From positions 18,623 to 82,622 of the IMG/VR virus record IMGVR_UViG_3300001525_000609: a stretch of 64,000 nucleotides of DNA, one strand, 5' to 3'. The notes under the pieces were generated by a model, which saw only the letters and a program-made list of their open reading frames with translations, ran no database searches and was not told the origin of the DNA. This stretch comes from a virus. Its lineage: Duplodnaviria; Caudoviricetes. A program made the translations under genes and the position numbers. Shown here in pieces: positions 2,230 through 43,066 of this stretch. Positions within the stretch are counted from its first letter, which is position 1; each line of letters opens with the position of its first letter.

Positions 2230-2669
2230 TTCTTGTCGGTAGACCCGAGTCCGCCATTGCGATCCCGGGTCGGTACGATTTCATCTTCAAGGAACAGGAA
2301 TGGTACGAACATTCCCTGCATGTATGCCTTGCCTTTGGGTATGCATATGTCTTCATCAGCGCACAGGGAGCATTGTATCTCGTCGCGATAATCCTGGTCG
2401 ATGATGCCGACAGTATCGGCCAACCTGACTTTGTATTTGAACCCCAAGCCCGAACGGGGATACAGCATAAGAGCCCAACTTGTAATCTCGTCCCTCCAAC
2501 GGGGAGTGCAGTTGATCCTGAGCCTCTCTGTGCCGTCCAAAGATACACCTGTACCGAATGTTGTCCACTCACCTGCTTTAAGATGTATATCTGCTGGGGC
2601 AAAGAAATCATAGCACGCGCTTCCTTTAGTTGCCCTTGCAGGCATCTCGACTCCTTCCTTAGTCTTCAT
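2226..2669 (-). CDS. dut: Trimeric dUTPase
   Basis: Motifs SACYD, PRSGLG, GIIDQDYR, Q.MF and RNGGLGST. Confidence 0.95.
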   Translation of the reverse strand: MKTKEGVEMPARATKGSACYDFFAPADIHLKAGEWTTFGTGVSLDGTERLRINCTPRWRDEITSWALMLYPRSGLGFKYKVRLADTVGIIDQDYRDEIQCSLCADEDICIPKGKAYMQGMFVPFLFLEDEIVPTRDRNGGLGSTDKK

Positions 2670-3348
2670 CTGATCTCTCCTCCTGTTCTTCTCCTAAATC
2701 ATCATCCAACACAGATTGGCCTTCCTCGGCATCGATCTTGGCTTTAGCTTCCGCGATCATCTCCACAAGGTCCTGATCCATCGCGGCGACATTGTAATAT
2801 TTAGCTGGGGGCTTCTTCCTCAGAGCTTTCATAACGAGTTCATTGAGCTTACGTGCGGTTGCAGGATCGAGCCTGTTATAGGGGGTGGTGATGCACACGC
2901 CCCCTACCCCGTCACCCATTATAGCGCCATTGAACAGCGTGCCTGCGAATTGCAAAGGCTCGACATCCCATGTATACTTGTAAATGACGTCCAGCGACAC
3001 ATCTACGTCGTCATGCCATACATCTTTCTTGTACAGCTTCCCATTGACGATCTTATCTTCAAGCTGTGCCGCGATAATCTTGCTCTTGACCCCCTCATCC
3101 GTGAAGCAAGGATGCAATGCGAGCTTAATGCCCAACTCTGCATTCTTGACAGCGAACCCCGCCTCCATGAGGCCTATGACATCTCCGCCCCAATAGCCCC
3201 CTTCAGGGTATTCGCACGGGGCGCGTATAGACATGATCACTTCATCGCCATCCAGCAGGCCGAGCATCTTGCATTCGTGACCGATGCTCACCCTGTATTG
3301 ACCGTGGCCATTATCATGAATCTTTTTCACTAATCCTACTACAATCAT
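2659..3348 (-). CDS. AbrB-like domain fused to a Tad2-like paralogous domain
   Basis: N-terminal VKKIHDNGHGQYRVSIGHECKMLGLLDGDEVIMSI. Central G.DVIGLMEAG...KDVW...DVIYKYTW matches the genes at 4412 and 4629. Confidence 0.55.
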   Translation of the reverse strand: MIVVGLVKKIHDNGHGQYRVSIGHECKMLGLLDGDEVIMSIRAPCEYPEGGYWGGDVIGLMEAGFAVKNAELGIKLALHPCFTDEGVKSKIIAAQLEDKIVNGKLYKKDVWHDDVDVSLDVIYKYTWDVEPLQFAGTLFNGAIMGDGVGGVCITTPYNRLDPATARKLNELVMKALRKKPPAKYYNVAAMDQDLVEMIAEAKAKIDAEEGQSVLDDDLGEEQEERSDED

Positions 3349-4409
3349 TCATTATCCCCCTTGAAATCAAGAACACACTGTGTGGTTTCCTTCTTCCACG
3401 TCTTGTCGATGAACATCGCCCTGAATATCGCCGTCCAGCAAGGGACTGCACTGGAAGCCGCAGCTACACGATACAACATGCCGTCAGACAGCCCCGCATC
3501 TTTTACCTTCTGGAACTCCACGTCGGTGTACCCCTGGAGCCTCCAGAATTCAAGAGGTGAGAACCGTCTGATCCTCAAGTTCCCTCTGACTGCATCTTCC
3601 ACATTGTGCCTGTCGCTGACAGTGACAGAGATATGGCGGTCATAATCAGGATCATCGGGTAAAGGCTGTATCAGGAACGGCCCTACGGGGCGACGGTCTG
3701 AATAGACTGTTATGAAAGAGCTGAATTTAGTAGCATCAGTGGGCATCCATTCGGGAGTCAACACATCATGGTATCTCCTGAACTTCATCTCACGACCTGC
3801 GATCTCCTCATACGACAACCACAAGTCTTTCACTGCGTCTTCAGATTCAAGAACGTCTTTCAATATCCTGCCATCTGGACAAGGCTCAGGGAATATGAAC
3901 TCCCCGTGATGCAGCGATGCTACCATGAACCATCTTCTGCGGTTCTGAGGCACCCCATAGTCGCTGGTATTCAAGACTTCGTACGATATCTCATACCCGA
4001 GGTCCTTTATCTCTTTGATAAAGAGATTGAAGAATCTGGAATATCTGCTGCTTAAGAGAAAAGGCGTAGACTCTGCACAGATGTACTCCGGAAGATTGCC
4101 CTCGGACCTCGCACTCTCTAACAGATCTATAACGAACCATGCAAGCGATGCTTTAGTATCCCTGCCCTTGCGATTGAGAGGAGCGATCTTCAACGTCGGC
4201 CAATCGAAGAACAGAAGATCTGCACTAGGCATCGACGTCATATCTGATACGTCATCATAGCTCAAGACATCGCCATGCAATGCCTTGTATCCTTCGAGTA
4301 TCTGCGGATACGACTCGCATACGATATCATCATGTTCGACCCCTGCACGATCGAGTGCAGTCTCGGCACCGCCTATCCCTGAGAACACATCAAATAGCTT
4401 CAGCGTCAT
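3345..4409 (-). CDS. C5 DNA cytosine methyltransferase homologue, predicted catalytically inactive
   Basis: Motif I FSGIGG, motif VIII YGVPQNRRR and motif IX RRFSPLEFWRLQGY are present. Motif IV reads WPT instead of FPC, and motif VI reads EST instead of ENV. Confidence 0.85.
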   Translation of the reverse strand: MTLKLFDVFSGIGGAETALDRAGVEHDDIVCESYPQILEGYKALHGDVLSYDDVSDMTSMPSADLLFFDWPTLKIAPLNRKGRDTKASLAWFVIDLLESARSEGNLPEYICAESTPFLLSSRYSRFFNLFIKEIKDLGYEISYEVLNTSDYGVPQNRRRWFMVASLHHGEFIFPEPCPDGRILKDVLESEDAVKDLWLSYEEIAGREMKFRRYHDVLTPEWMPTDATKFSSFITVYSDRRPVGPFLIQPLPDDPDYDRHISVTVSDRHNVEDAVRGNLRIRRFSPLEFWRLQGYTDVEFQKVKDAGLSDGMLYRVAAASSAVPCWTAIFRAMFIDKTWKKETTQCVLDFKGDNE

Positions 4410-4411
4410 GT

Positions 4412-4645
4412 TCACTCCATATTGTCTGCCGCATTCCATTCGTGATTATACAACGCATTGACATCAAGGCTGATATCTGCCCATTGGGTGACATATTCCG
4501 TAGGCAGAGGTGCCGAGCCGGTATGCATGAATTGCAGGTGGTTAGAAGTTCTGTTCAGCTTGATGACGATATCATGGTCTCTTATTCTAGATGAGAGAAT
4601 ATGGCCATCTTCGAGCAGCTTCAATGCATCAGAGCCTCTGGGCAT
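4412..4645 (-). CDS. Stand-alone Tad2-like paralogous domain protein
   Basis: GSDALKLLEDGHILSS...QWADISLDVNALYNHEW aligns with the domains in 2659 and 4629. Confidence 0.5.
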   Translation of the reverse strand: MPRGSDALKLLEDGHILSSRIRDHDIVIKLNRTSNHLQFMHTGSAPLPTEYVTQWADISLDVNALYNHEWNAADNME

Positions 4646-5231
4646 CGTACACCCCCTTGTCGTTAGCCGCATCGTAGAACCAGCCCATATCATTGAGTTT
4701 GAGCATCTGGTATAGAATCGTGTCTCCGGTTATATCGCAAGTGCCTTCTTCCTTTAAAGTCTCGATCGCGTCATTCCTCAGAGCCATATATGCGCGTGTG
4801 TTGAAGTGAAGCAGATCTTCTACTTCATCGCATACCACCCAGGGCGTATTGTAGATAGAGTCGATGACATCGACCGATGTCAACGCCCAAACATCTTTGG
4901 GGATAAGATCGGTCGGGACTGTGAGGGCTACGTATATGCTCTTGCTGGTATACTTTTCATCCTGTTTGACAAGGCGCATAGGGTCCAGTGCCAAGTACAC
5001 GGGGTCAGAGCCATCATGCGGGACAGATTTCATAATGTGTCCAGACTCCAGATAGCTAAGCACAGTGGCTCCGCAGACTTCCTTGTTCTTCATCTCCTCA
5101 GAGGTGTCGAGCGATATGTAGACTGAATTATGCTCTTTTAAGCCCAATTGCTTCGCCTCTGACGACAAGACGACAACGAGCGAGTTGCCTTGTTTTTTCA
5201 GTACCTTGCGGATAGCTTCAAATCCCTTCAT
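4629..5231 (-). CDS. AbrB-like regulator fused to Tad2-like domain(s)
   Basis: IRKVLKKQGNSLVVVLSSEAKQLGLKEHNSVYISL is a clear AbrB/MazE pattern, followed by GATVLSYLESGHIMKS...KDVW...DSIYNTPW. Confidence 0.65.
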   Translation of the reverse strand: MKGFEAIRKVLKKQGNSLVVVLSSEAKQLGLKEHNSVYISLDTSEEMKNKEVCGATVLSYLESGHIMKSVPHDGSDPVYLALDPMRLVKQDEKYTSKSIYVALTVPTDLIPKDVWALTSVDVIDSIYNTPWVVCDEVEDLLHFNTRAYMALRNDAIETLKEEGTCDITGDTILYQMLKLNDMGWFYDAANDKGVYDAQRL

Positions 5232-5308
5232 AGTATTACTTTGTATTACTCATATATATTTATGAGTTTCGAAAATAAATATTGAATTGAAATACAATGT
5301 AATTGAGG

Positions 5309-5381
5309 TAGTCCTGCTCGGATTCGAACCGAGGTCGCCTGATCCAAAGTCAGGAACGATTGACCGCTACGCCACAGGACT
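5309..5381 (-). tRNA. tRNA-Gln(UUG), no encoded CCA
   Basis: AGTCCTG/CAGGACT acceptor stem with A1-U72, CCTGA-CTTTGGA-TCAGG anticodon arm, GGTTCGAATCC T-loop. Confidence 0.95.
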
Positions 5382-5393
5382 ATGATAAGAAGT

Positions 5394-5558
5394 TTAGGCG
5401 GATCCATCTTCTCCGAGCACACACGTCAAGGCATTATCGAGCGTCTCCAACACTTCGCCTTCACGCACTGTGTAGCCTCCGTCGGCCTTGCAGCGCGCCA
5501 GAGCGTCTGCGAAGGCCCTCAGGGGGCCGTTGACGAATGCGTCCATGGTATTTGTCAT
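5394..5558 (-). CDS. Small hypothetical protein (54 aa)
   Basis: Hand translation MTNTMDAFVNGPLRAF...; fills the gap in the operon. Confidence 0.45.
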   Translation of the reverse strand: MTNTMDAFVNGPLRAFADALARCKADGGYTVREGEVLETLDNALTCVLGEDGSA

Positions 5559-5567
5559 GGTATCGCC

Positions 5568-5798
5568 TCAGAAGCCCCATGCCGCAACGAGCAGCACAGC
5601 GTACAGCATCCATCCGACGATTCCGCCCACCAGGGACGAAGCCATCGCGCCCAGGCCCGCGTTGTCCTCGTCGTCCTTGTAGACGACGACCATCACGAGG
5701 CCGACCACCACAGCGAGAATCACACCGAACAGGCCCAGGGCGAACCCCATGACCAGTCCGAGGACTCCGCATATCAGAGCCATGTCTTTCGGTTCCAT
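5568..5798 (-). CDS. Small multi-pass membrane protein
   Basis: 76 aa with about three hydrophobic GxxG-rich helices; GAGGA SD. Confidence 0.65.
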   Translation of the reverse strand: MEPKDMALICGVLGLVMGFALGLFGVILAVVVGLVMVVVYKDDEDNAGLGAMASSLVGGIVGWMLYAVLLVAAWGF

Positions 5799-5800
5799 TC

Positions 5801-6067
5801 TCATTCCTCCAAGTCGTAATCCTCTTCCCAGGATATATTGCATGCGTCTTCGGGCATGCCCGTGTTCTCGCAGAAGCGCTTCCACGCTTTCTCCATGCGC
5901 TCCTCTCCCGTGTCCCCGGAGAGGAACAGGTCCGCTTCCTCTATGAGGTCTCTGAACTCTTTGGCGAGCCCTGCGACCTGCGTGTTGACAAGCTTGTTCT
6001 CGTCCCTTCTGAGGGCATAGAGCCAATCGCCTATCATGTATGTCCATTCCAATGTTCCACCGCTCAT
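5801..6067 (-). CDS. Conserved phage hypothetical protein
   Basis: MSGG...SGDTGEE pattern; ATGA overlap with the upstream gene. Confidence 0.6.
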   Translation of the reverse strand: MSGGTLEWTYMIGDWLYALRRDENKLVNTQVAGLAKEFRDLIEEADLFLSGDTGEERMEKAWKRFCENTGMPEDACNISWEEDYDLEE

Positions 6068-6723
6068 TCTTCCACCTTGTACCAATCGTCCGCCCATACG
6101 TCCTCAGGAGTTATGCCCGAGGATATGTACTGGTCGGTGTACACGCTCAGATAGCCGTGCTTGTCGCGCATCTCCGCGTCCGCAGGCCATGCCTTGCGCC
6201 TGAACTTCTCCGGGCTGATGCCCGATTCGATTCCTTTGAGCACCCAGCCGAACTGCCCCTCCTCGATGCAGTCGCGCACGCAGAGCCAATCGTCCGCGAC
6301 CTCGTCGGCAAGGGTCCACGAGTCGCGCAGATAGCCCCCGACGGCGGGAGACCTGCCCTTGAGCGGGCCGTCCCAGAACAGGGCATAGCCCTTCGGCCAT
6401 GCCTCGCGCCTGAAGTATATGGGCTCGGTGCCCTTGACGAGGTCCAGCGTGCTCTTGACTATCCGCAAGGTGTAGTGCGGCAGGGTCTCGGGCATCGCCA
6501 CCCAATCGTCTGCCAGCATATCGGTCTGGCTGGCGAGCCAGGGCACCCTGTCGAAGGTGCCGTCTTCATGCTCTATCTCCATGTAGATATACGGCTTGGT
6601 CATCTTGCTGAACTCTGTGGGGCGCTGGAGCTTTATCCATTGGCATTTGCCGTTCCAGCCCATGCGGTAGAAACGGGGCTCGCTCCATGTGTAGAATCCT
6701 TCCAGCACATCTGAGAAGTACAT
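6064..6723 (-). CDS. tad2: Tandem three-domain Tad2/DUF2829-family protein
   Basis: Domain 1 has RMGWNGK...PYIYM...VPWLASQTDMLADDW. Domains 2 and 3 have FRREAW...VADDW and FRRKAW...DVWADDW. Confidence 0.8.
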   Translation of the reverse strand: MYFSDVLEGFYTWSEPRFYRMGWNGKCQWIKLQRPTEFSKMTKPYIYMEIEHEDGTFDRVPWLASQTDMLADDWVAMPETLPHYTLRIVKSTLDLVKGTEPIYFRREAWPKGYALFWDGPLKGRSPAVGGYLRDSWTLADEVADDWLCVRDCIEEGQFGWVLKGIESGISPEKFRRKAWPADAEMRDKHGYLSVYTDQYISSGITPEDVWADDWYKVEE

Positions 6724-6727
6724 CCCA

Positions 6728-7126
6728 TCAGCTCCCGTACTTCGACAGTATCGCATCGATCTGCGCTTGCACGTTCGACATGTCCGACTGAATCGAGTTG
6801 GAGAGATAGGCTTCCATGATCATGCAAGCCAGCATGCAGATCAGCGTTGCTGCCACAAAGGTTCCGACAGTCCAGATACGAGAATCGACATCACGTTTCT
6901 TGACAACAGTCCATCTTCCACTAATGATGGTCTCTTCGCGTCCTGTGTATGAAATGTACAGCCATGATGAGAGCAGGGCAAGACCGAAGCCTATTACGGC
7001 ACATGTCGCCAGCCAATAGGGCAATGCCGTCAAGTCTATGTGGTCTATGTTATACTGGAATTGAGCGAGCTGTCCTCTCAGCTCGCTCAGCCGCAGCCCG
7101 TCCTCATACGTTATGTTCATGTCCAT
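6728..7126 (-). CDS. Two-TM membrane protein with coiled ends
   Basis: Two hydrophobic segments flanked by heptad-like regions. Confidence 0.6.
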   Translation of the reverse strand: MDMNITYEDGLRLSELRGQLAQFQYNIDHIDLTALPYWLATCAVIGFGLALLSSWLYISYTGREETIISGRWTVVKKRDVDSRIWTVGTFVAATLICMLACMIMEAYLSNSIQSDMSNVQAQIDAILSKYGS

Positions 7127-7138
7127 TCTATCAACTCT

Positions 7139-7315
7139 TCATTTCTCTTCATTTCTCTTCATCTGAAGGATTGTCAGCGCGTCCCGTAGGTTCATTGGCT
7201 GTCTCTTCATCTCGACGAGGTCGTTGATGCATTTGCGCATGGCCCATGATGCGCCCACTAAGAATCCGCAAATGAACCATACCAGCATCATAATGAGAGC
7301 TATATCATCGCTCAT
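7139..7315 (-). CDS. Small single-TM protein (58 aa)
   Basis: Hand translation MSDDIALIMMLVWFICGFLVGASWAMRK...; ATGA overlap. Confidence 0.55.
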   Translation of the reverse strand: MSDDIALIMMLVWFICGFLVGASWAMRKCINDLVEMKRQPMNLRDALTILQMKRNEEK

Positions 7316-7485
7316 TCTTTGTACACTCCCGTCCTATGAAGCCAATGGTTGAACTCCCTGTCGCAGTCCCCGCATATCATGAATGACCTGCCCAAGAGCT
7401 TCGCCCTTATGCGACGGTCCCTGTAATCGTAGTAGCTCATCTCCTTCTTGCAACGATCGCAATAATAGCGGACTACCCTGGTCAT
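7312..7485 (-). CDS. Small CxxC Zn-finger protein (57 aa)
   Basis: Hand translation YYCDRCKKE...MICGDCDREFNHW. Confidence 0.6.
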   Translation of the reverse strand: MTRVVRYYCDRCKKEMSYYDYRDRRIRAKLLGRSFMICGDCDREFNHWLHRTGVYKE

Positions 7486-7486
7486 T

Positions 7487-7702
7487 TCACCACCCTTTCG
7501 ATTCGTCCCAATATTCGACTATGTGAACGGGGTTGATGTAGCGATGAACACCGTTCACGCTGACTCTGACTGTTCTTGTTGAGTGAATCGCCCCATGCAG
7601 GGCACTGACACCTTTTTCCCCTCCACCGCCGATACACGTGATGCGTTCTTCCTGCGTGACAATCTCTTCACCCGTGGAGAGCTTGATGTGGGTCGTCACC
7701 AT
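7487..7702 (-). CDS. Hypothetical protein
   Basis: GGTGA-type SD; overlaps the upstream gene. Confidence 0.55.
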   Translation of the reverse strand: MVTTHIKLSTGEEIVTQEERITCIGGGGEKGVSALHGAIHSTRTVRVSVNGVHRYINPVHIVEYWDESKGW

Positions 7703-7929
7703 TTCGCTTCACCCCCCTTAGCGAGGACCATCTGCTTGAGCTGGTCCTGTAAGGCATTGATGATCGTGGCAAGGCTGTCCGTATCGACCGCGATATGGAT
7801 CTCATTCCCATCTGAATCCTTGAGCATCATGTGCGCGTAATCGGCACGGGTGGCAAAAGGGCTTATCTCGATCGTGCCTTCATCGAAGGTGCGGCCCATA
7901 TATCTTGTACGGATCTCAGTGCAGGTCAT
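7696..7929 (-). CDS. Hypothetical protein, paralogue of the C-terminus of 15784-16191
   Basis: GTIEISP..RADYAHMML vs GILRIRP..PADYAFLAL. Confidence 0.55.
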   Translation of the reverse strand: MTCTEIRTRYMGRTFDEGTIEISPFATRADYAHMMLKDSDGNEIHIAVDTDSLATIINALQDQLKQMVLAKGGEAKW

Positions 7930-8441
7930 TCATCCCCTCTCCATCTTGAATTCACCTTGCCCGCGAGCTTGCTCAGCCAACTGTTATCAGGGAAATCCAC
8001 ATCACTTGCATCCAAGAAGAACTGGAATCCGCACCTGCAACTGAGGGATATGTACTCTACATCATCAAGGGCCCCTGCATAGTCTGTCTCGCATCTGTTC
8101 ATCCACTCCACGTCATTGTTCTCTTCGGCAGTAATGCGGTCCGCAGCCCACATAGCGTTCTTCTTCGGATCAGCGATATACTCATAATCAATCACCCTGT
8201 CCATCTCGCCAATAGGCGTACCTTCATCATCCATGAACATCAGGTCTTCGACAGTCAGCTGATATCCACAGATCGGACACCGTTTAAACGGTACGGGGTC
8301 GGCTTCCACATCGGCTTCTGCGCAGGGGCAGTGCTCGCACTCGTCCAGCTTGCAAGTTATCAGGTCCCTGTCTGTTATGTCTTCTTCGATGTCCACGACG
8401 TGCTTGCAATCATGGCATTCTCTCTTCGGATACATCTTCAT
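7926..8441 (-). CDS. Multi-Zn-ribbon protein
   Basis: CHDC, CEHCPC, CPICG and CRCG motifs. Confidence 0.6.
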   Translation of the reverse strand: MKMYPKRECHDCKHVVDIEEDITDRDLITCKLDECEHCPCAEADVEADPVPFKRCPICGYQLTVEDLMFMDDEGTPIGEMDRVIDYEYIADPKKNAMWAADRITAEENNDVEWMNRCETDYAGALDDVEYISLSCRCGFQFFLDASDVDFPDNSWLSKLAGKVNSRWRGDE

Positions 8442-8498
8442 CTTCCATCTCCTCTTCAGTCTATGGCCTCTCTCCATCAGGGTCGTGGCCGCACCAGG

Positions 8499-9056
8499 TC
8501 ACTCAGACTCCTCCTCCGCGTGCTCCAGCTTCACAAGCTCGACCGATAAAGATTCGATGAATCTCGCTTCATCTTCATCTCCTGACTTGAGCGCATCGCT
8601 TACAGTCGAAGTATCGACCGAACCAGATTCTGAAAGTGCATCGACAACGAGCAGCTTGTAGAACTTGACCAGCTCTCTGAATGCCTGACGCAGATACGGG
8701 TTGCGCATTGCTTCTTCGACTCTGTCCTTGCCATGGACCTCGATGATGCCCGACATCGCGTCACCGAGGTAGTACTCTGCCGCATCGCCCCATGTCTTAC
8801 CGAGCAACATGAGCCTGTCCATATCCTCAGTGCATTGGGGGCAGAGCAGATTGTATGTCATGTTTCCTTCAACGATCTGCTCGAATGACTTCGGGGGGTC
8901 AGGCGCGAAACTCCATCCGCATGATACGATCATGCACACATTCTTATCATCGCTCAGGCTCTCTCCCATCAGATTCACACCGAATGTGTGGCAATTCGCA
9001 CAAAGGCATGTCTCATCCGTGCTCGTCGTGTAACGCATCATCACCTTTCTTGCCAT
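8499..9056 (-). CDS. Zn-finger hypothetical protein
   Basis: CANC and CPQC motifs; AGGAGGA SD. Confidence 0.6.
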   Translation of the reverse strand: MARKVMMRYTTSTDETCLCANCHTFGVNLMGESLSDDKNVCMIVSCGWSFAPDPPKSFEQIVEGNMTYNLLCPQCTEDMDRLMLLGKTWGDAAEYYLGDAMSGIIEVHGKDRVEEAMRNPYLRQAFRELVKFYKLLVVDALSESGSVDTSTVSDALKSGDEDEARFIESLSVELVKLEHAEEESE

Positions 9057-30648: not shown

Positions 30649-30878
30649 TTTAAATATCAGTCGGGACATATAAGGTACGTCTTGGGACCTCTTGTCTTGT
30701 CGGGCGTCATTCACAGCGGGGCCTGCTCCCTTCTAGGGGGCGGCGGGCCCCGTCACCTCTTTTCATACCTGTCATAATCGTTATATAGGGCGTTATCGAT
30801 GTTAGTCCGCCTTCAGGTAAGGTCGGATCGCATCTGTTCCGGGTGCGATTGGGGTTCAAAGGCGGCCCCATTCGCGCC

Positions 30879-30888
30879 ATTTTTATAT
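30879..30888 (+). promoter_or_regulatory. TATA-like box ATTTTTATWT (also at 37298 and 45352)
   Basis: Same 10-mer lies 19-21 nt before three start codons (30910, 37329, 45381). Confidence 0.55.
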
Positions 30889-30909
30889 CCTCATACTGTT
30901 CGGCATGGC

Positions 30910-33900
30910 ATGACCGATGATAATCCGACTGATGACGAGCAGCTCAAAGAGCTGGACCCTGAAGACCCTAGGCCGAAGCAGACCTTCGACTCGCCTGAAC
31001 CTCTGAAATCCGATGTTCAGACGCCCGAGCCGAAGACGCCGGAGCTTCCTCCAGAGCCTGCATCTGAATATAAGCCGAGAAAGCAGAACATCAGCGCGGC
31101 GGATGTGAATGAGGATGCATCATACGACAGCGATATGCACGATCGCGCACGCGAATCTCGTATGAAGGATGGTGACGAGGATGTTTCGGCTGCCGAAGCG
31201 GCGCTGGACCAGGAGCTGTCCAACAGCACGGATGAGCGCGTCAGCGACGACGACAAGGCTGAGGCGGCCGAACGTGCGGACGAGTACAACCGCAACCGCG
31301 CCAAGAAGGACGCGGACCAGGCCCTGAAAGAGCGCAGGAAGGCGAAGGCGTGGGACGGCATCGAAGCTGTCGCAACAACTCTGCCCGGGATCGCGATGCA
31401 GACCACAGGCGATGTGCTGGGGAGCGTGAGGACGCTTGTGAACTCGTTCCTGTCGGGAGGGCCGATGACCATGTCCAGCCGGATCCTGGGCGAGGTCATG
31501 AGCGACACATCGGCCATGGAGAACCGCCTGAACACCCTCCATGAGCAGTACGGCATCTTGAGGGACTCCGACCCGCGCCTGACCGCAGACACTGTCAAAG
31601 GGCGCATGATGCGTGCAGCTACGAGAGAGGAGATGGAGGGTATAGCGTATGCCAACTCCAGCATCGATCTCATGCTCAGGACCCTTGGAGAGGACCCGTC
31701 GCAGATGAACGAAGCGTCCCTTCAGTCTGTGCAGAACGGCATCGACAGGGAGACTGCGAGACTCAATGAAGAGCTGCGCACAGGCAAGGACAAGGACGGG
31801 AACAAGCTCAATGCGCGTCAGAGACGCGTCAGGCAGGCGCAGCTCAGGCAGTACAACGAGGCCCTGACTGGGATAAACAAGAAGGTCAACGAAGCCAAGA
31901 AGTATGCCCGTGAAGACTACGCCGATGCGAGGCAAGCCGATTCCCAGCACAGGAGATGGGAGCGCGAAGTGGCCGGCGTGCAGAGGGGGTTCGAACGCGA
32001 GCACAAGGCGTGGGAGAAGGAAGGCGCACAGGCGCAGAGGGATTTCGAGCGCGAGCACAAGGCGTGGGAGCGCGATAAGGCCGCTGCGGATAAGAAGTAC
32101 AACAAGGACCTCAGCGACTGGCAGAAGCGTGAAGACGCCAGATGGGAGCAGAAGCGGTCGGACGACAGGTTCAATGCAGGCACGCCTGCCCAGCAGCGCG
32201 TATGGACTGCCTTGGGCCGTGATATCGACCTAGATGAAGAAGGCATCCCGACGGACAGTAGGCACTTGAACCGTCTGACCCAGGTCGCGGCGGACCGCCT
32301 GAGGAGCATAGAAGGAAGCCTTCTGCCTGGTGAGAAGCCAGAGGACAATGAAGACTATCAGAGATGGCAGGCTGTGCTGAACCGCGTGTCGCAGGTCAGG
32401 GAGCAGAACAAGGCTCGGATGCCGCTGACCGACGAGCAGCGCGAGGCTCAGCGCATCAAAGAGGAGAAAGAGGCCAGAGCCGCTGCGGAAGCCAAGGCGC
32501 AGGAAGACAGGTACAATGCGGGATCGGATCCGCAGAAGCGCGTGTGGGACATCTCCGGCGACAGGACGATAGACCTGTACGATGACGGCACGCCAGTAGA
32601 CAGCAGGCACTTGGAGAGCCTGCGGAAGGCTGTGTCCGACAAGATCTTTGCTCGTGAGAAGGAGCTGAGGGATGTGGACGCCGATCCTTCGAGCGACGAG
32701 GAGTATCGGAAACTGCAGGCCATCCATGGGCGCATCCAGGACAGACAGAAGTGGAACGCGGAGCAGAACCTGTCTCCCGAAGAGCGCGAGAACAGGCGCG
32801 CTAAAGCCGAAGCCGAAGCGAGGGCTGAAGAAGTCTACCGGAACAGCAACGCTGCTCAGCGCATCGTCAGAGACATGCTCGGGAAGAAGGACATCCCTCT
32901 GGACGAGAACGGCGTGACGCTGGACCATTCGTCTATCAACTCAGTCATCACCAAGACGAGAGCGTGGCTGAGCAACCCCGCCAATGCCGATTCGGAGGAC
33001 AGGCCCGTGGTTGAGAAGATCCTGGACGCGTACCGTCATACTGCTCTGACCAACAAGAACCTGGAGAAGGAGTTCTACGATCAAGTATCTACTCTCTCTG
33101 ATGGCCTGGTGAACAATAGCAGGAACTCGCTCAATGCGATAGTCAACGAATGCAGGAACGGTCTCGCAGACTGGTATAAGGAGCATGGCATCGACCCGAG
33201 CACATACCCTACGCCTGCCGAGGTCGGGGAAGATGCATATGCGGAGTTCTATTCTCTTTTCACTCGCAGAGCTGCCGCAGTCAACGGGCTCGCATATCAC
33301 GAAGCTATGAATAGGATCCACCAGGGCGCAGAGTCGATGGGGTTGAACAGCGATGCCGTCGAGCGCATCGGCATGACCCTCAAGACTCTCCAGATCAAGG
33401 ACCACGAAGACCGTATGAATAGGGGGATGAAACCTGATACGATATCGGACTTCTCCAACGCAGTCAGAGGATTCAACATCATATTCAGTAAAAAAAGCCA
33501 GAACATAAGAGATGAGCTTCAAGCAAAGATGGATCAGATCGACGAGCAGTTGCGCGATATGCACTACCGCGAATCGAAGGGCACGATATCATACGAGGAG
33601 TTCAGCGAACTGAAGATCCGGCTGAATCGTCAGAAGAACGGCTTGCAGCGCATAATAAACGGTTGTGAGAGGATGCCTGATGTCCTGAAACCTGCGCAAG
33701 TGGCGGCCTATAAGAAGAACATGAACATCATCGGCCTAAAGCTAAACAGGCTGGGCCTCGGCAACGGTTCAGGTGGATACAAAAGAGTCAAGGAGTCTGC
33801 CGAACCCACTTCTAAGAAGAAGCCTGAGCTGGACTTCGGAGACAGAGGCAACCCGCTCCCGCCGCCGGCGGTTCCCGAAGGGTCTGTACATTCTGAAGGA

Positions 33901-35637
33901 GACGGGGGATCGCTTTCCGATATGCAGCGGCTTGCAAAGGAGATGAACACGTATTCGGCAAACGGGGAGCTCAGCCCGGATTTTGTGTATGAGACGATGT
34001 TGAAATTGGCCAATTCGGTCCGTGCCGGTGAGCCCATCGATGATGACGCTCTCACGAAGATATACACTAATCTGTATGATAGTGTGGATGATAAGTCCAA
34101 GCTGGAGCTTCAGAGCATAATCGGTGTCCCCGAACAGATAAATGGATTCTTCGACAAGATCAGGCCTGAGAAACAAGACGAAGATCAGAGGCATGAGGTC
34201 GAAGACGAAGGCCAGGACGAATCTGATGAAGCATATCAGGATTTAGATAGCGGAAACCCTAACAGCAGATACAGCAAAGATCTCCGCAGTTTCAAGAACA
34301 AGATCGCTCAGATGGACAGGGGTGGCGCAGAGAATCAGAAAAAGCAGGTAATGAGCCAGCTCAAGAGGTCGATTGCCGATAAGAATTCGAGCATGGAGGA
34401 TATAGAGAAATATTATCAGAAGCTCAGGATGTTGGAAGATTGGGAGTCTGAGCCTAAGCACAAGGGGGAGATATTCACCAACGAGGAGAGGGCAGAGCTG
34501 GCTAAGATGTCAGAAATCGGCATCGACAAATATGTGTATCAACAGCAAGGCGCACTTGCAGATGAGGCATTGGCTGAAGAGCTGAAGAAGAACGAGACGT
34601 TCAGGCTCCAACTGGCCACATCTAACAAAGCTCTTGAGGATGCCAAGAAAGCCCTTGAGGATACCAAGAAAGCCCAGGAGGAAATGAAGCGGGAGATCGC
34701 CAATCTGAAGAGTGAATTGAACAGTGGTACACATGCTATCCCTCTTACACCCCCTGCATCCTCTGCGTCTCCTGCCCCCCTCCTCGTAGATTCTGATATG
34801 GATGCTTTGAAAAATGAAAGGAAAAAGAAACGTGAGGAATATCTGAACAGCGAAGGGCTCAATAAAGATGCAAAGGCGTATGTACAGCAATTGGAGAAAT
34901 ATCATCGCGGAAGCGCCGATTTCAATGAGAATCTCAGAACGATGCTGAATACCAAGCTTGCAAGCGGCCCTTTGGATACAGACCTCCATCCCGAGATGAG
35001 AAAGTTCGTTTCAGATATGGTGAATGACTTGGTCGGTGTTTTCAGCGAAAAGGACCCTCAGAAAGCAAGAGAATCGATCGATAAGCTGCTGGTGGAAGCT
35101 GGTCCTAAAGAGGCTCATGGCTCTTTATACGGGGGCATTCCCAGAACCGTATCGAGCGATAGCCGGAAGGAGATAGACGGCACCTTGTTCGACTTGAGCA
35201 ACTTCCTGCAGAACATGAATATCTGCTCGGCTAAGACTGCGAGAGAAAAGAAAGAGAAAAGAAAAGAGACGAAGAAAGAGCCCAAACTCATGCACTCCAA
35301 TATCGACACGGTGCTTCCTGAAGGCCCGATCCGCGAGGCTTTCAAGAAGATCGATGATGCCAGATCGATAAAAGGCTTTGAAAGTCGCAAGAACTTCTTC
35401 GAGAATCTGTCAGAAGAATTGACGAATGAGGGAATTAATGAAGACAGGAATGGCAATCAGATGACGTATAGCTATACCAGTCTTGATAATGTGCAGGGCA
35501 GGTTCCTGAGAGCGTTGTACAACACGCTGAATAATGATAAAAAATATGGCCCATATGAGAATGACAAGGGTGAAGACGATGAGGATCTGATTGAATTGGC
35601 CAACCTATTATACGATGAATTCAACAAAAAGATGTAA
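30910..35637 (+). CDS. Giant helical repeat protein (1575 aa), candidate internal virion/ejection protein
   Basis: Three ~120-aa repeats (RxNAG..QxRVW...D.RHL) and tandem FEREHKAWE; coiled coils. Confidence 0.6.
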   Translation: MTDDNPTDDEQLKELDPEDPRPKQTFDSPEPLKSDVQTPEPKTPELPPEPASEYKPRKQNISAADVNEDASYDSDMHDRARESRMKDGDEDVSAAEAALDQELSNSTDERVSDDDKAEAAERADEYNRNRAKKDADQALKERRKAKAWDGIEAVATTLPGIAMQTTGDVLGSVRTLVNSFLSGGPMTMSSRILGEVMSDTSAMENRLNTLHEQYGILRDSDPRLTADTVKGRMMRAATREEMEGIAYANSSIDLMLRTLGEDPSQMNEASLQSVQNGIDRETARLNEELRTGKDKDGNKLNARQRRVRQAQLRQYNEALTGINKKVNEAKKYAREDYADARQADSQHRRWEREVAGVQRGFEREHKAWEKEGAQAQRDFEREHKAWERDKAAADKKYNKDLSDWQKREDARWEQKRSDDRFNAGTPAQQRVWTALGRDIDLDEEGIPTDSRHLNRLTQVAADRLRSIEGSLLPGEKPEDNEDYQRWQAVLNRVSQVREQNKARMPLTDEQREAQRIKEEKEARAAAEAKAQEDRYNAGSDPQKRVWDISGDRTIDLYDDGTPVDSRHLESLRKAVSDKIFAREKELRDVDADPSSDEEYRKLQAIHGRIQDRQKWNAEQNLSPEERENRRAKAEAEARAEEVYRNSNAAQRIVRDMLGKKDIPLDENGVTLDHSSINSVITKTRAWLSNPANADSEDRPVVEKILDAYRHTALTNKNLEKEFYDQVSTLSDGLVNNSRNSLNAIVNECRNGLADWYKEHGIDPSTYPTPAEVGEDAYAEFYSLFTRRAAAVNGLAYHEAMNRIHQGAESMGLNSDAVERIGMTLKTLQIKDHEDRMNRGMKPDTISDFSNAVRGFNIIFSKKSQNIRDELQAKMDQIDEQLRDMHYRESKGTISYEEFSELKIRLNRQKNGLQRIINGCERMPDVLKPAQVAAYKKNMNIIGLKLNRLGLGNGSGGYKRVKESAEPTSKKKPELDFGDRGNPLPPPAVPEGSVHSEGDGGSLSDMQRLAKEMNTYSANGELSPDFVYETMLKLANSVRAGEPIDDDALTKIYTNLYDSVDDKSKLELQSIIGVPEQINGFFDKIRPEKQDEDQRHEVEDEGQDESDEAYQDLDSGNPNSRYSKDLRSFKNKIAQMDRGGAENQKKQVMSQLKRSIADKNSSMEDIEKYYQKLRMLEDWESEPKHKGEIFTNEERAELAKMSEIGIDKYVYQQQGALADEALAEELKKNETFRLQLATSNKALEDAKKALEDTKKAQEEMKREIANLKSELNSGTHAIPLTPPASSASPAPLLVDSDMDALKNERKKKREEYLNSEGLNKDAKAYVQQLEKYHRGSADFNENLRTMLNTKLASGPLDTDLHPEMRKFVSDMVNDLVGVFSEKDPQKARESIDKLLVEAGPKEAHGSLYGGIPRTVSSDSRKEIDGTLFDLSNFLQNMNICSAKTAREKKEKRKETKKEPKLMHSNIDTVLPEGPIREAFKKIDDARSIKGFESRKNFFENLSEELTNEGINEDRNGNQMTYSYTSLDNVQGRFLRALYNTLNNDKKYGPYENDKGEDDEDLIELANLLYDEFNKKM

Positions 35638-36048: not shown

Positions 36049-37266
36049 ATGGCTACGATAACAGAGATGCTGTCGAATATTTCCGACGGTATGACTATAC
36101 GCCTTGAGAAAGACTACAATGAATCGGTGGTCGTCCCAAAGGGCCTGAGCGTCGTCTTCGACCTGGGAGGACACATATGGACTGCGCCATCGGGCGAGAC
36201 TCCCCTTACCGTTGAAGGCGCATCTGCATCGGTGCATAATGGCACTATGACCGCCAAGAACAACGCAGTCATCAGAGTCGGTGCTAAGAATTCCGAATCC
36301 GAATCGTATGCGACTCTCGGCGTCACGCTCAACCTCCAAGCCGATGGGCATGTCTGCGTGTTCCTCGGGAAGGGGGCGCACGTGGACACGTCCGCATCGA
36401 TGAACACTCTGTCTGAGAACGGGGCTATTCAGGGGAACGGGACTGCTGCGTATTTCGGCAACAGCTGCGTGATCCGTGACGGTACGATCAGGTCAGTGGA
36501 TATTCCGATCTATTGGCCTCAAGAAGGGGATCTGACCATCCAAGGCGGGACCATCATCGGCAAGAAGTCGGGCGTCGAGATCCGCGCGGGCACCCTTACC
36601 GTGAAAGGCGGGACCATCATCGGAGAAGGTTCTCCGACAGAGTTCATGCCTAACGGATCGGGCACTACATCTGAAGGCGCAGGTATCGCAGTGGCGCAGC
36701 ATACTACCAAGAAGCTGATATCTGTCGTCATCAGCGGGGGGACGATCAAAGGCCATACTCCATTCTATGAGTCCAATCCTCAGGGTAATTCCGCAGAGGA
36801 TGTTGCGAAGATATCGGTGAGCATCACGGCGGGGAAATTCGAGACGATAAATGGCGGAACCATGGCGGTCTATTCGGAGGATTGCAAGGGGTTCGTCAGC
36901 GGCGGGATCTATGCCGGCGCAGTGGATATGACGTTCTTATCTTCGGGATTCGCTTTGTCCAGGCGCTCTGACGGGTCATACGGTGTGATCGTCGACCAAT
37001 GGTATATGCCTGAAGATGGTGCAGCAGGAGGGGGCTTCATAGGCCTCAAGAGGCTCATTCTTTACAAAGAGGTCCTAGACTACCACGCAGGCGGAATAAA
37101 GCTTCCATTAGCGGGGATGGATGCGCGCATATGCCTTGCGATCAACGCAGAAGGCGGGCCTTCTGCATGGTATGACCCTCTTGAGCAGCTGTTGCATATC
37201 TACAAGAACGGCGAGGACGCAGATGCAGTCTACAAGTCGATAACCGTTGTCCTGCTCGGATACTGA
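36049..37266 (+). CDS. Right-handed beta-helix (adhesin-like) protein
   Basis: FDLGGH.., repeated TIxGGTI and GAGIAVAQHTTKK...GGTI.G. Confidence 0.7.
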   Translation: MATITEMLSNISDGMTIRLEKDYNESVVVPKGLSVVFDLGGHIWTAPSGETPLTVEGASASVHNGTMTAKNNAVIRVGAKNSESESYATLGVTLNLQADGHVCVFLGKGAHVDTSASMNTLSENGAIQGNGTAAYFGNSCVIRDGTIRSVDIPIYWPQEGDLTIQGGTIIGKKSGVEIRAGTLTVKGGTIIGEGSPTEFMPNGSGTTSEGAGIAVAQHTTKKLISVVISGGTIKGHTPFYESNPQGNSAEDVAKISVSITAGKFETINGGTMAVYSEDCKGFVSGGIYAGAVDMTFLSSGFALSRRSDGSYGVIVDQWYMPEDGAAGGGFIGLKRLILYKEVLDYHAGGIKLPLAGMDARICLAINAEGGPSAWYDPLEQLLHIYKNGEDADAVYKSITVVLLGY

Positions 37267-37328
37267 AACCATCAGCCTGCGCTTAGCGCAGGCATTCATT
37301 TTTATTTCAGGCAGTCATTCTCGCATGT

Positions 37329-38666
37329 ATGAGCGATTCGCAGAAGCCTTTGAAAATAATTTACAAACCTGTTGACAGCCTCACGCCTTATGAGAACAAC
37401 CCTCGCCTCAATGATGATGCTGTCCCCCAGGTGGCCAAGTCCATCGAATCATTCGGATTCCTTGTGCCTATGGTGGTATCCGCAGATGGCGTGGTCGTGA
37501 CAGGACATACACGCCTCAAGGCGGCCAAGATGCTCGGCATGGATAAAGTGCCCTGTATCTGTGCAGACGATCTTACTCCTGAACAGATCAAGGCGTTCAG
37601 GCTTGCAGACAACAAAGTGTCTGAGAGGGCTGATTGGGATCAGGATCTTCTGGCGATAGAGCTGGAGGGGCTTGGGGATTTCGAGTTCGAGATGGAAGAT
37701 TTCGGATTCACGCCTATGGATTTCGGCGATTTCGAGATGTCGGGCAATGAAGACGACGAAGAGGAAGATTATGTTGACGATTCGTCGCATTCGAAGAAAC
37801 AATCGAACGATTCCGATGATGCTATTGTCGATGACGAGCCCGAAGTGCTCATATCTGCGATGCCTGGAGCTGAAGCAGTCATCCAGTCGGGCGATATCGT
37901 CGAGCTGGGCCGGCACAGGCTCAGATGCGGCGATTCTCTTTTGAAAGAATCATACGATGAGCTCATGAAAGGCGTCGTCGCAGACCTCGCGTTCACTTCA
38001 CCGCCTTATAACGCGGCTCGTTTGAGCACAGGAAGGGCGCAGGACAGTGCAAAATATCTCCATAATGACGATATATACACCAATGAGGAGTATTCCAGGT
38101 TCCTGAATGCGGTCGCGGACCGCCTTTTGGACAATTCCGAGGAGGCCTTGATCAATGTAGGGGTGCTGAAAGGTTCAAAAATCGGGATAATCTCGCTTCT
38201 AGATGCACACAGGGGCAATTTCAAAGACCTCATTTATTGGAAGAAGAACAATCCTGTGCCTGCGATGGCCAAAAACCACATATCCAGTGCCGTGGAGCTG
38301 ATAATCGCCCTTGGAAGGGACGGCTCCCGCATGTTCAGGCACGATCCCGGGATCTGGTATGGAGTGATTGAAGGGAATTGGGCTGGCAACAATCAATATT
38401 CAGCCGTCCATAGGGCCACATTTCCGCTTTATCTCCCTACAGAGGTCATAAATCATCTTTCGGACGAGGATGCGGTCATCCTCGACCCCTTCGGAGGCAC
38501 GGGAACGACCCTTATCGCTTGCGAAGATACAGGCAGGACCTGCTATATGCAGGAGATAGACCCTGCATATTGCGATCTCATTGTCAGGCGCTATATCGAG
38601 AGAGTCGGTAGCTCCGACACAGTGCATCTGTTCAGAAACGGTGAAGAAGTGGATGCCAAGTGGTGA
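37329..38666 (+). CDS. ParB-N domain plus N4/N6 DNA methyltransferase
   Basis: LTPYENNPR...SIESFGFLVP...GHTRLKAA...RLADNK; TSPPY; HRATFP; DPFGGTGTT. Confidence 0.9.
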   Translation: MSDSQKPLKIIYKPVDSLTPYENNPRLNDDAVPQVAKSIESFGFLVPMVVSADGVVVTGHTRLKAAKMLGMDKVPCICADDLTPEQIKAFRLADNKVSERADWDQDLLAIELEGLGDFEFEMEDFGFTPMDFGDFEMSGNEDDEEEDYVDDSSHSKKQSNDSDDAIVDDEPEVLISAMPGAEAVIQSGDIVELGRHRLRCGDSLLKESYDELMKGVVADLAFTSPPYNAARLSTGRAQDSAKYLHNDDIYTNEEYSRFLNAVADRLLDNSEEALINVGVLKGSKIGIISLLDAHRGNFKDLIYWKKNNPVPAMAKNHISSAVELIIALGRDGSRMFRHDPGIWYGVIEGNWAGNNQYSAVHRATFPLYLPTEVINHLSDEDAVILDPFGGTGTTLIACEDTGRTCYMQEIDPAYCDLIVRRYIERVGSSDTVHLFRNGEEVDAKW

Positions 38667-38767
38667 TAGGATGGAGAGTATGAGTATTCATCACCACTCG
38701 ACAATATCTATAATCATTTCATAGTATAATTAATTATCGTCATACCATCGAGTATAGTATTGTTTTG

Positions 38768-38814
38768 CATTACAAATTACATAATTACATAGCTTTATCA
38801 AACATTTTAGAAAA
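38768..38814. repeat. Partial third copy of the ATTACA iteron block
   Basis: CATTACAAATTACATAATTACAT...AAACATTTTAGAAAA upstream of the VirE-type gene. Confidence 0.6.
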
Positions 38815-38888
38815 TCAAAAACAGTTTATATCAGATTCGACATAGACTGTTCAGATGCGATTCGGACGGTGTTAACCTGCAAAAGCCC

Positions 38889-40673
38889 GTGTTCATAGAC
38901 CAGATAAAAGCCGTAGGACTAGTGATCGACAAGACCGGAGTTGTTCACGACAAGAACGATGTGTTCCAATATCTCATGGTAGGGAAGGAGGAAGTCAGGA
39001 CTGTCGATGGGAGGTCCATACCCTACTCTGAGATAAAGCAGATGTCGTATGTCGAGAAAATGCATACAGTCGCCTTCAAGTATGCGGATTCGAAAGAGGA
39101 CGAGGAGGACGTTGTCTATGGGAGCCATTTCCCTGAGGAAGAGATTCCCATGTATGAAATGCCTCGTAGCACGTCTACGCTCAACGATGCGTTCGATATC
39201 CTCTATCCTGACAACAGAGAGCAGCTGTATTATGACGAGCTCCGCGAGAGGGAGATGATCGATATGACGATGCTGGACCGCCCCGATATGGGCGTAAGGC
39301 CATTCTCTGACCGCATCCTCGCGATGTATCATGACCATATCCAGAGGAGGCTGACCTATTGCGGATTCATGGGCACCAGGTATCCGTCAAATGATGTGAT
39401 GGACGAGGTTCTCCGCATCCGTGTCGGAGACCGCAGGAGGAATCTGTTCCGCGAATGGGTAGAGTCTCATGTATGGGATGGGAAGCCCAGGCTCAGAACA
39501 TGCTTCATTGATTACTGCGGTGTGGAGGCTCCCGCCCTTCAGGAAGACGGCAAGCACACTCCTGAAGAGCTCCAGTATATCGGCGATGTTACGGAAGCGT
39601 GGTTCATCGGTGGCATAAAGAGGATGTACGATGAAATCGCGCACGAAGTCGTGCCCGTTCTTATAGGAGGTCAGGGTGCCGGAAAAACCAATGCGCTGAG
39701 GTTCATAGCAGGCGATAATGATTGGTATCGTTCCACTACAGCCGATGTGTCTCAGCCTGCGCGGTTCTTGGAGACTATCAGGGGTGCGATAGTCGTGGAG
39801 ATGGGGGAGTCCAAGCAGATCCGTACTTCGGACAATGAGACTCTGAAGGCGTTCATATCGCAGTCATGCGACCAGTTGCGCATGCCTTATGCAAGATATG
39901 ACGAGTCGTTTCCCCGGCATTTTATTATGATAGCCACATCCAATATGGATTCCGTGTTCACGGACCTTACAGGGTCCAGACGTTTCTATCCCCTTTATTG
40001 CAATCCCCGTAATGCTGTCAAGTCATTCCCGACGACGGTACGTGGGGCGAGATACCAATACGAGATAGAGCAGATATGGGCTGAAGCTCTTTATCTGTAC
40101 AATGAAGGGCACAGATGGTTCGTGCCTAAGAACACTATCCCGCTCGCCAAGAAGATGCAGAAGTTCTGTGCGGTCGAGAATCCTGGACTGTCGCTCATCG
40201 ATTCTTACCTGGACGACCCTACGAACAATCTTACCAAGAGGGGGTCCAGGATAACCCGTTCTACGATAATGCGTGATATCTTCCAGATCGACCCGGGCCT
40301 TCCGCCTACACCTCAGGCAGAGACTATGTACCGCGCATGGAAGCTCGGCACCGACAGATGGGTACAATCACCTAAGCCCTTCTCCATCAATGGCAAGACC
40401 GTGAGGGGCTTCTCAAGAGTATATGAGCCTGGAGAGGAGATTCCTGAAGTCACGTTCAAGATGGTGGATGGTGGGGAGCCTGAACCCGAAGTCTCTGTGG
40501 AGAGCAGGTTCTCTCAGCTTCTCTCGATAAAGGGCATCGATAAAGAGGATGTGGTGATCGATATGTCAGGAATCCCCGATGAGGAGATAGAGGAGTACTT
40601 GTCTGAGGGCCTCATATACAATCTGGGTACAAGCTCCCATCCTGAGTTCCATGTGGGGTGTTTGGTTGGCTAA
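38889..40673 (+). CDS. VirE/VapE-family P-loop ATPase (replicative helicase)
   Basis: WDGKPRL, VLIGGQGAGKT, VVEMGE, LKAFIS...RMPY...FPRHFIMIATSN and DLTGSRRF. Confidence 0.9.
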   Translation: MFIDQIKAVGLVIDKTGVVHDKNDVFQYLMVGKEEVRTVDGRSIPYSEIKQMSYVEKMHTVAFKYADSKEDEEDVVYGSHFPEEEIPMYEMPRSTSTLNDAFDILYPDNREQLYYDELREREMIDMTMLDRPDMGVRPFSDRILAMYHDHIQRRLTYCGFMGTRYPSNDVMDEVLRIRVGDRRRNLFREWVESHVWDGKPRLRTCFIDYCGVEAPALQEDGKHTPEELQYIGDVTEAWFIGGIKRMYDEIAHEVVPVLIGGQGAGKTNALRFIAGDNDWYRSTTADVSQPARFLETIRGAIVVEMGESKQIRTSDNETLKAFISQSCDQLRMPYARYDESFPRHFIMIATSNMDSVFTDLTGSRRFYPLYCNPRNAVKSFPTTVRGARYQYEIEQIWAEALYLYNEGHRWFVPKNTIPLAKKMQKFCAVENPGLSLIDSYLDDPTNNLTKRGSRITRSTIMRDIFQIDPGLPPTPQAETMYRAWKLGTDRWVQSPKPFSINGKTVRGFSRVYEPGEEIPEVTFKMVDGGEPEPEVSVESRFSQLLSIKGIDKEDVVIDMSGIPDEEIEEYLSEGLIYNLGTSSHPEFHVGCLVG

Positions 40674-42042: not shown

Positions 42043-42147
42043 ATACGCATTAAACTTTTTACCTTTCATACATTTTTCATACATCAGATATTATTAAATA
42101 CTACATAATCTATGTAGATATCGTGCTTGAAAGCACAGGAGCGGAAT

Positions 42148-43065: not shown

Positions 43066-43066
43066 T

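Follow-up and report, generated by a model that had tools for sequence, protein, structure and literature searches.

Viruses are known to counter nucleotide-signalling immunity chiefly by means of sponge proteins, the characterised examples of which all come, to our knowledge, from bacteriophages. Tad2 (PF11195) is established as a tetrameric sponge with its pockets between protomers (10.1101/2023.05.01.538930; 10.1101/2023.11.15.567273), and the known proteins, among them SPO1 Gp34.65 (8SME/8SMF), HgmTad2/AcrIIA7 (8KBI-8KBM), SptTad2 (8WJD) and ModTad2 (9EIB), are single-domain homotetramers of ~90-105 aa. Here we describe a Tad2-like gene of a tailed virus, which lies at 6064-6723 on the minus strand of a 64,000-nucleotide stretch of DNA (referred to as the window) from IMG/VR record IMGVR_UViG_3300001525_000609 (82,622 b, estimated 98% complete). 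Unlike the known Tad2 proteins, the product of this gene carries two extra degenerate domains per chain, and the host in this case is probably an archaeon. A canonical Tad2 domain (residues 1-75, D1) is followed in a single chain by two degenerate Tad2-like copies (D2 and D3), and this layout is real, rare and conserved.

Chains that carry several sponge-type domains have a precedent in the Acb4-Tad2 and Sequestin (PF21825)-Tad2 fusions, for which the stated rationale is the blocking of several signals by one protein, and for which dual inhibition was reported (10.1101/2025.07.12.664507). However, those fusions join unrelated families, each domain of which homo-oligomerises, whereas the domains added here are diverged copies of Tad2 itself; neither PF13876 (Acb4) nor PF21825 matched the whole protein or residues 76-219 at E values up to 10. 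Degenerate and canonical Tad2-like domains also stand in tandem in P0046 and P0061 (metagenomic proteins of 161 aa with two PF11195 stretches), and in a 156-aa protein encoded on a contig of a metagenome-assembled genome (MAG) that is discussed below, but all three have two domains rather than three, and in P0046 and P0061 the canonical domain is the C-terminal one. The degenerate domains of these proteins have no detectable kinship to D2 or D3, HMMER having found only the two clusters of D2-D3 itself. The contig that encodes the 156-aa protein (G001:C199) bears an additional PF11195 match ~2 kb away (L010 902-1360, minus strand), with an in-frame TAG.

Tad2-like domains are likewise present in other tailed archaeal viruses, namely the Asgard virus JinchiV3 (PMC13700489) and two viruses of Methanomassiliicoccales, vir215 (BK063676.1) and vir335 (BK063680.1). 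In the first two they are single domains, the vir215 form being a stand-alone protein of 77 aa, while in vir335 a Tad2-like N-terminus is fused to an annotated nucleotide kinase (phrog_236; L006 719-1561), a fusion partner of which we found no mention in the sponge literature searched. In the tblastn comparison of phage records the D2-D3 module was found in none of the three. Earlier work has described fused sponges as well as the Tad2 of archaeal viruses, and the literature searched describes neither a chain with a canonical Tad2 and two degenerate Tad2-like domains nor a Tad2 in methanogen viruses.

The open reading frame (ORF) comprises 219 codons plus a stop in the ORF list and its translation. 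A longer frame that starts at 6756 is available, but we prefer the start at 6723 because the MYFSDV methionine encoded there is the common start of all five orthologues, because a Shine-Dalgarno-like GGGAG is suitably placed upstream of it, and because the upstream neighbour gene ends at 6728. An earlier reading made from the letters of the window alone (the sequence-only reading) had assigned the same coordinates to a single chain, which the ORF, the orthologue starts and the Shine-Dalgarno-like element show to be right, and the motifs that it quoted are all present: RMGWNGK and VPWLASQTDMLADDW in D1, FRREAW and ADDW in D2, and FRRKAW and ADDW in D3.

A per-domain comparison with PF11195, which that reading had proposed, set the three domains apart. 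D1 scored 60.6 bits (E 2e-16) over profile positions 1-71 of 73, far exceeding the 25-bit gathering score, while D2 was unmatched and D3 remained under the cut-off. PHROGs 1048 and 872 also match D1, and its sequence matches in the PDB are 8kbi, 8wjd, 9kzr and 8sme (HgmTad2/AcrIIA7, SptTad2 and SPO1 Tad2). In the AlphaFold model D1 has a predicted local distance difference test score (pLDDT) of ~85, and when this predicted model was searched with Foldseek all matches to D1 were Tad2 structures, the best being 8wje_B (SPO1 Tad2) with an E value of 2.8e-5 and a template modelling (TM) score of 0.75. It is virtually certain that D1 has a Tad2-like fold.

The residues that contact the ADP-ribose (ADPR) derivative gcADPR have been defined as W25, N26, W73, S76, T78 and D79 in SPO1 Tad2 (10.1101/2023.05.01.538930), and as W21, N22, G23, W87, L88, S90, T92 and D93 in HgmTad2, where binding is lost in the W21A/N22A and S90A/T92A/D93A mutants (10.1101/2023.11.15.567273). 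D1 retains every one of these published contacts, in the segments W23 N24 G25 and W62 L63 A64 S65 Q66 T67 D68, and its pocket residues are invariant across an alignment of 52 sequences. The two pocket tryptophans are separated by 38 residues in D1, 47 in SPO1 Tad2 and 65 in HgmTad2, and the beta2-beta3 insertion of D1 is shorter than that of SPO1 Tad2. Given that the dinucleotide pocket of HgmTad2 is built by this insertion (10.1101/2023.11.15.567273), and that the insertion in D1 is short, a pocket of that type is unlikely in D1, and the binding of CBASS dinucleotides in the manner of HgmTad2, which would have accorded with the CBASS signals named in the sequence-only reading, is correspondingly unlikely (38 versus 65 residues between the tryptophans). 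An anti-CRISPR role of the kind implied by the name AcrIIA7 was set aside, as Cas9 inhibition by HgmTad2 was not reproduced by Li et al. (10.1101/2023.11.15.567273).

We modelled four copies of the chain with ESMFold2. The model scored 0.72, against 0.00 for the best of three controls, a mark that in calibration 20 of 30 proteins with structures solved as pairs of one chain had attained, as had 1 of 23 with single-chain structures. The model also had a contact agreement between runs of at least 76% and a partner pLDDT of at least 78. Confident inter-chain contacts were confined to D1 (residues 2-11, 32-33, 39-47 and 57-70), in regions that correspond to helix alpha1, the beta strands and the WLASQT loop, and these are the interfaces used by the SPO1 Tad2 tetramer (10.1101/2023.05.01.538930). 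As Tad2 tetramers have been solved, the score may derive from structures that the predictor had already learned; it shows likeness rather than binding, and the model is uninformative on the packing of D2 and D3 within a chain. D1 is like described Tad2 proteins in its Pfam membership, its predicted fold and its complete set of gcADPR contacts, and the model predicts for it a D1-D1 tetramer such as that of SPO1 Tad2.

For D3 the PF11195 scores ranged from 10.9 to 15.6 bits, and the sub-threshold alignment spanned profile positions 2-71 of 73 in all four orthologues compared (E 0.024-0.71). When residues 76-219 were modelled without D1 (AlphaFold, from a four-sequence alignment), D3 had a pLDDT of ~65-85, and in a Foldseek search of the entire PDB its top 24 matches were Tad2-family chains without exception, with probabilities of 0.41-0.99 overall and 0.94-0.99 for the top ten. 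VIA-align superposed D3 (model residues 81-143) on Tad2 chains from end to end of the latter, with Z scores of 5.0-5.7 and a root-mean-square deviation of 2.4-2.7 Å over 59-60 residues, the best unrelated chain reaching a Z of 2.7. The order of secondary structure elements in D3, H-E-E-E-E-H-E, is that of D1 in the AlphaFold model. A Tad2-like fold for D3 is, in our judgement, very probable.

D2 had no PF11195 match at E values up to 10 in four orthologues, and its pLDDT was below 50 in two AlphaFold runs, which leaves its fold unconfirmed by those models. It is clearly linked to D3, with 30% identity by BLASTP (E 6e-5), and in searches with hidden Markov models (HMMs) the two domains were reciprocal best matches, all four copies of each ranking directly after the other's own set at E values of 2e-4 to 2e-2, where the best of 2,696 decoys stood at 0.024 and 0.77. 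A joint D2+D3 HMM placed 13 genuine Tad2 domains before the first decoy. HMMs of D2 only and of D3 only did not raise Tad2 domains above the decoys, and hhalign of D2 or D3 against the Tad2 profile gave short fragments only, at ~10% probability; the Tad2-likeness of the two domains is accordingly drawn from the joint HMM, from Pfam and from the fold, and not from local profile comparisons. An ESM Atlas model of residues 76-152 had TM scores of 0.57-0.64 and feature scores of 0.82-0.83 against Tad2-like clusters, which by calibration is a lead only, and the mean pLDDT of the whole chain in ESMFold2 was 78-85. Since D2 is paralogous to D3, it may be taken to be Tad2-like by transitivity only, and on this ground we regard a Tad2-like fold for D2 as probable. 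The triple Tad2 protein of the sequence-only reading is in consequence firm for D1, holds for D3 through its fold and its sub-threshold profile matches, and extends to D2 solely through the homology of D2 with D3.

The two degenerate domains share a common frame, in which a helix is followed by F-R-R-x-x-W, then by D-x-x-A-D-D-W, and by a final strand. The FRRxxWP motif is invariant in both and stands where D1 has RxGWNG, with a proline in place of Asn-Gly after the tryptophan. The pocket positions are occupied by W109-P110, W136 and D140 in D2 and by W179-P180 and D208 in D3; the Asn, Ser and Thr contacts are missing from both domains, and D3 lacks the second tryptophan as well. In addition, both are short by ~11-15 residues in the beta2-beta3 insertion. 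Judged by these residues, D1 alone looks able to bind the known signals, and D2 and D3 do not.

Full-length orthologues were found at 99% (P0002), 84% (P0003), 79-80% (P0004) and 42% (P0101) identity. The reading frame is intact in all five orthologues, and the three-domain layout is retained in P0101 despite an identity of just 42%. Among the three close orthologues the ratio of nonsynonymous to synonymous substitution rates (dN/dS) was 0.04-0.10 for D1, 0.36-0.54 for D2 and 0.23-0.42 for D3, so that all three domains are under purifying selection (dN/dS <1), with D2 and D3 evolving 4-9 times faster than D1.

A word-indexed search of 5.8 billion proteins returned three other full-length clusters (99%, 84% and 80%), the remaining matches being to D1 only, and an exhaustive HMMER search of 1.84 billion cluster representatives with D2-D3 returned two 50%-identity clusters, its own and that of P0101 (44%). 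The D2-D3 module was absent from the IMG/VR scan, from an alignment scan of 185,579 species genomes, and from a tblastn search of 50,697 phage records at E values up to 10; a blastn search of window positions 5000-9000 against phages was also without a match. As far as these searches reach, the D2-D3 module does not extend beyond a small clade of its own.

With respect to the host, the VapE-like helicase encoded in the window has its best phage match in Caudoviricetes sp. vir335, at 47% identity (E 6e-121), the next-best phage being at 29%. The vir335 record (83,070 b) is the nearest annotated relative and has Methanomassiliicoccales as its recorded host. An alignment scan of 185,579 species genomes with VapE found a single locus, on a 79-kb contig of a Candidatus Methanomethylophilaceae MAG (G001), where the match is full length at 51%; the same MAG has three PF11195 matches. 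By these comparisons the virus is linked to Methanomassiliicoccales, probably to Methanomethylophilaceae, and the archaeal, methanogen-linked origin proposed for it is supported by the VapE likeness and the MAG contig. PCNA was unusable as an archaeal marker, because Pfam PCNA_N and PCNA_C had no match at E values up to 0.1 across the 82.6-kb record. Stop codon usage (14 TAG in 99 ORFs by crude calling, spurious ORFs included) is not decisive for a pyrrolysine-using host, and P0190, on a 1.3-Mb contig, was rejected for host inference since its context is that of a Staphylococcus-type prophage.

The prediction of nucleotide-signalling immunity in the methanogen host, made in the sequence-only reading, is supported for the host lineage. 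In the MAG's order, matches above the cut-off were present to ThsB_TIR (PF08937) in 13 and to SMODS in 5 of 151 sampled genomes, and in its family to ThsB_TIR in 12 of 151 (~8%). The caspase family Peptidase_C14 was found in 5 of 151 family genomes, in each of them directly beside ThsB-type TIR genes; at the G035 locus the order is TIR, caspase, TIR, with PADLOC matches for ThsB and the caspase. These TIR-caspase clusters of methanogenic archaea match type IV Thoeris in layout, and the type IV signal, N7-cADPR, is sequestered by some Tad2 homologues (10.1101/2025.08.24.671296). In G035 a D12 adenine methylase gene lies after the TIR-caspase cluster.

The reading that we favour, with slightly better than even confidence, is that the protein is a D1-driven tetrameric sponge for ADPR signals made by TIR proteins, with D2-D3 as an accessory part. 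We infer that four chains, if they behave as modelled, would assemble into a Tad2-type tetramer through D1 alone, which would create the two usual inter-protomer pockets, and that these pockets would sequester the ADP-ribose-derived signals of host TIR (Thoeris-type) systems, so that the effector would be blocked. D2-D3 would be a duplicated, faster-evolving pair in which the GWNG/SQT pocket residues were replaced by FRRxxWP, and the two domains would probably be attached to the D1 core in an accessory role, without canonical pockets. Tad2 homologues experimentally inhibit type I, II and IV Thoeris (10.1101/2025.08.24.671296).

Several points weigh against this. Apart from the low pLDDT of D2 in AlphaFold, the host assignment is supported by a relative's annotation and a binned MAG contig, not by spacers or an isolate. 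More than 90% of the sampled host-family genomes are without ThsB_TIR, and the MAG that bears the related virus contig has no ThsB_TIR match itself. We also know of no archaeal Tad2 for which a binding or anti-defence assay is on record. Finally, the putative hosts of the Asgard virus with a Tad2 (2026) lack both Thoeris and CBASS (PMC13700489), and given this, archaeal Tad2-like proteins may possibly be aimed at another target.

It is also conceivable, if unlikely, that D2-D3 is a non-ligand accessory module, a decayed internal duplication that persists because it aids solubility, spacing or stability or because it binds a host or viral protein. The loss of the pocket residues in D2 and D3, and a constraint 4-9 times weaker than that on D1, are what such a module would show, and Tad2-like domains do occur in many contexts in this virus group (the kinase fusion of vir335, the 77 aa of vir215 and the 156 aa of the MAG contig). 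On the other hand, the invariance of FRRxxWP and ADDW and an intact frame at 42% identity favour a specific function over decay. A variant of this proposal, counted within that same low probability, is that the archaeal role of the whole protein is unrelated to the sequestration of immune signals, in keeping with the scarcity of TIR genes among the sampled genomes; the retention of every ligand contact in D1 would be hard to explain without ligand binding.

A comparably unlikely proposal, and the one put forward in the sequence-only reading, is a multi-specific single-chain sponge, in which D2 and D3 would pair together or with D1 to form non-equivalent pockets for a second or third signal, such as a different isomer of ADPR, a cyclic nucleotide (mono- or di-) or a cyclic oligoadenylate of type III CRISPR. 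In its favour, R-x-x-W and D-x-x-A-D-D-W, at positions that line the canonical pocket, are retained in both domains, FRRxxWP is invariant across orthologues only 42% identical, and the D2/D3 dN/dS of 0.23-0.54 describes a sequence constrained but faster than D1, as for an arms-race surface. Moreover, the ligands of the Tad2 family already span His-ADPR, N7-cADPR, cCMP/cUMP and dinucleotides, and the fusion of different sponge domains yields dual inhibition (10.1101/2025.07.12.664507). However, the Asn of GWN has become Pro in D2 and D3, the Ser and Thr of SQTD are gone, D3 has no second Trp, and neither domain has the beta2-beta3 insertion that forms the HgmTad2 dinucleotide pocket. The four-copy model likewise has no confident inter-chain contact in D2 or D3, intra-chain packing being outside its scope. 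The loss of pocket residues from D2 and D3 disfavours this reading, and with inter-chain contacts in D1 only, non-equivalent pockets are not supported so far.

A further proposal, to which we give marginally less credence again, is that D2 and D3 pack together within one chain as a pseudo-dimer, in which the FRRxxWP and ADDW surfaces would make a new pocket for a signal foreign to canonical Tad2; the ligand might be, for example, the signal of an archaeal TIR-caspase system or a cyclic oligoadenylate. Finally, that D2 is a linker or some other fold, a mere spacer in a chain with two Tad2 domains, would agree with the absence of a Pfam match in four orthologues, with the failure of the D2-only HMM to lift Tad2 domains above decoys and with the unfolded D2 of both AlphaFold runs, but we regard it as very improbable in view of the reciprocal best HMM matches of D2 and D3 above all decoys, their shared order of helix, FRRxxWP, W..D..ADDW and final strand, the ESM Atlas similarity (as a lead) and an ESMFold2 whole-chain pLDDT that suggests a folded D2.

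The D1-driven sponge that we favour is encoded within a conserved neighbourhood (Table 1), the gene order 132 aa, Tad2-like gene, 88, 76 and 52 aa being kept on every contig. Pfam gave just weak noise for the 132-aa neighbour upstream and no family for the three small genes downstream, which follow the Tad2-like gene in the same sizes and order in L002, L003, L004 and L005. A tRNA-Gln (UUG) gene is located at 5307-5381 on the minus strand, within the minus-strand small-gene block and three genes downstream of the Tad2-like gene. Three neighbouring ORFs (4629-5231, 4412-4693 and 2659-3348 (-)) were considered as Tad2-like and rejected, as they had no Pfam match at E values up to 0.5 and gave less than 1% in hhalign against Tad2 or D2/D3, comparisons that were of low sensitivity with single-sequence queries. 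Elsewhere in the window, a 1,612-aa ORF at 30799-35637 is unmatched in Pfam.

Table 1. Positions of the Tad2-like gene, its domains and neighbours, and of other features in the window and in related or host-family genomes (window coordinates unless a locus or contig is named).
Feature	Position	Strand	Remarks
Three-domain Tad2-like protein gene (P0001), 219 aa	6064..6723	-	Stop codon 6064-6066
D1, residues 1-75	6499..6723	-	Canonical Tad2/DUF2829; GWNG and PWLASQTD pocket motifs
D2, residues 76-152	6268..6498	-	Degenerate, probably Tad2-like; FRREAWP and W..LADEVADDW
D3, residues 153-219	6067..6267	-	Compact, degenerate, very probably Tad2-like; FGWVL, FRRKAWP, PEDVWADDW
Shine-Dalgarno-like GGGAG	6732..6736	-	8 nt upstream of ATG at 6723; by sequence inspection
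Upstream neighbour, 132 aa, probably a membrane protein	6728..7126	-	Same-size gene directly upstream in L002 and L004
Downstream trio of small genes	5394..6067	-	88 aa, 5801-6067; 76 aa, 5568-5798 (hydrophobic); ~52 aa, 5394-5558
C5 cytosine methylase	3345-4439	-	
ParB_N-N6/N4 methylase fusion	37329-38666	+	Replication/modification module 36049-44137
VapE-like helicase	38889-40673	+	Replication/modification module 36049-44137
SNF2 helicase	40651-42042	+	Replication/modification module 36049-44137
YqaJ-like exonuclease	43058-44137	+	Replication/modification module 36049-44137
156-aa protein, canonical Tad2 and partial second unit (hhalign 93%)	L010 1279-1749	-	G001:C199, 79-kb contig
TIR-caspase cluster	L019 4054-5870 (G035:C1:1033553-1035369)		Peptidase_C14 flanked by ThsB-type TIR
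Further TIR-caspase clusters	G109:C9 44894-46510; G166:C3 866-2477; G207:C5 977-3910; G226:C6 553-1790		

The degenerate domains D2 and D3 constitute a natural experiment in what becomes of an oligomeric sponge fold after internal duplication, whether it moves toward new pockets or toward a scaffold. If D2-D3 is only accessory, the finding shrinks to one more Tad2 architecture. If the pseudo-dimer pocket proved to be true, a single fold would provide two sponge specificities per chain, and methanogen viruses would have their first characterised anti-signalling counter-defence. The presence of a canonical Tad2 in a virus linked with gut methanogens, together with that of TIR and TIR-caspase genes among genomes of the host family, offers a testable pair of TIR signalling and counter-signalling in Archaea.

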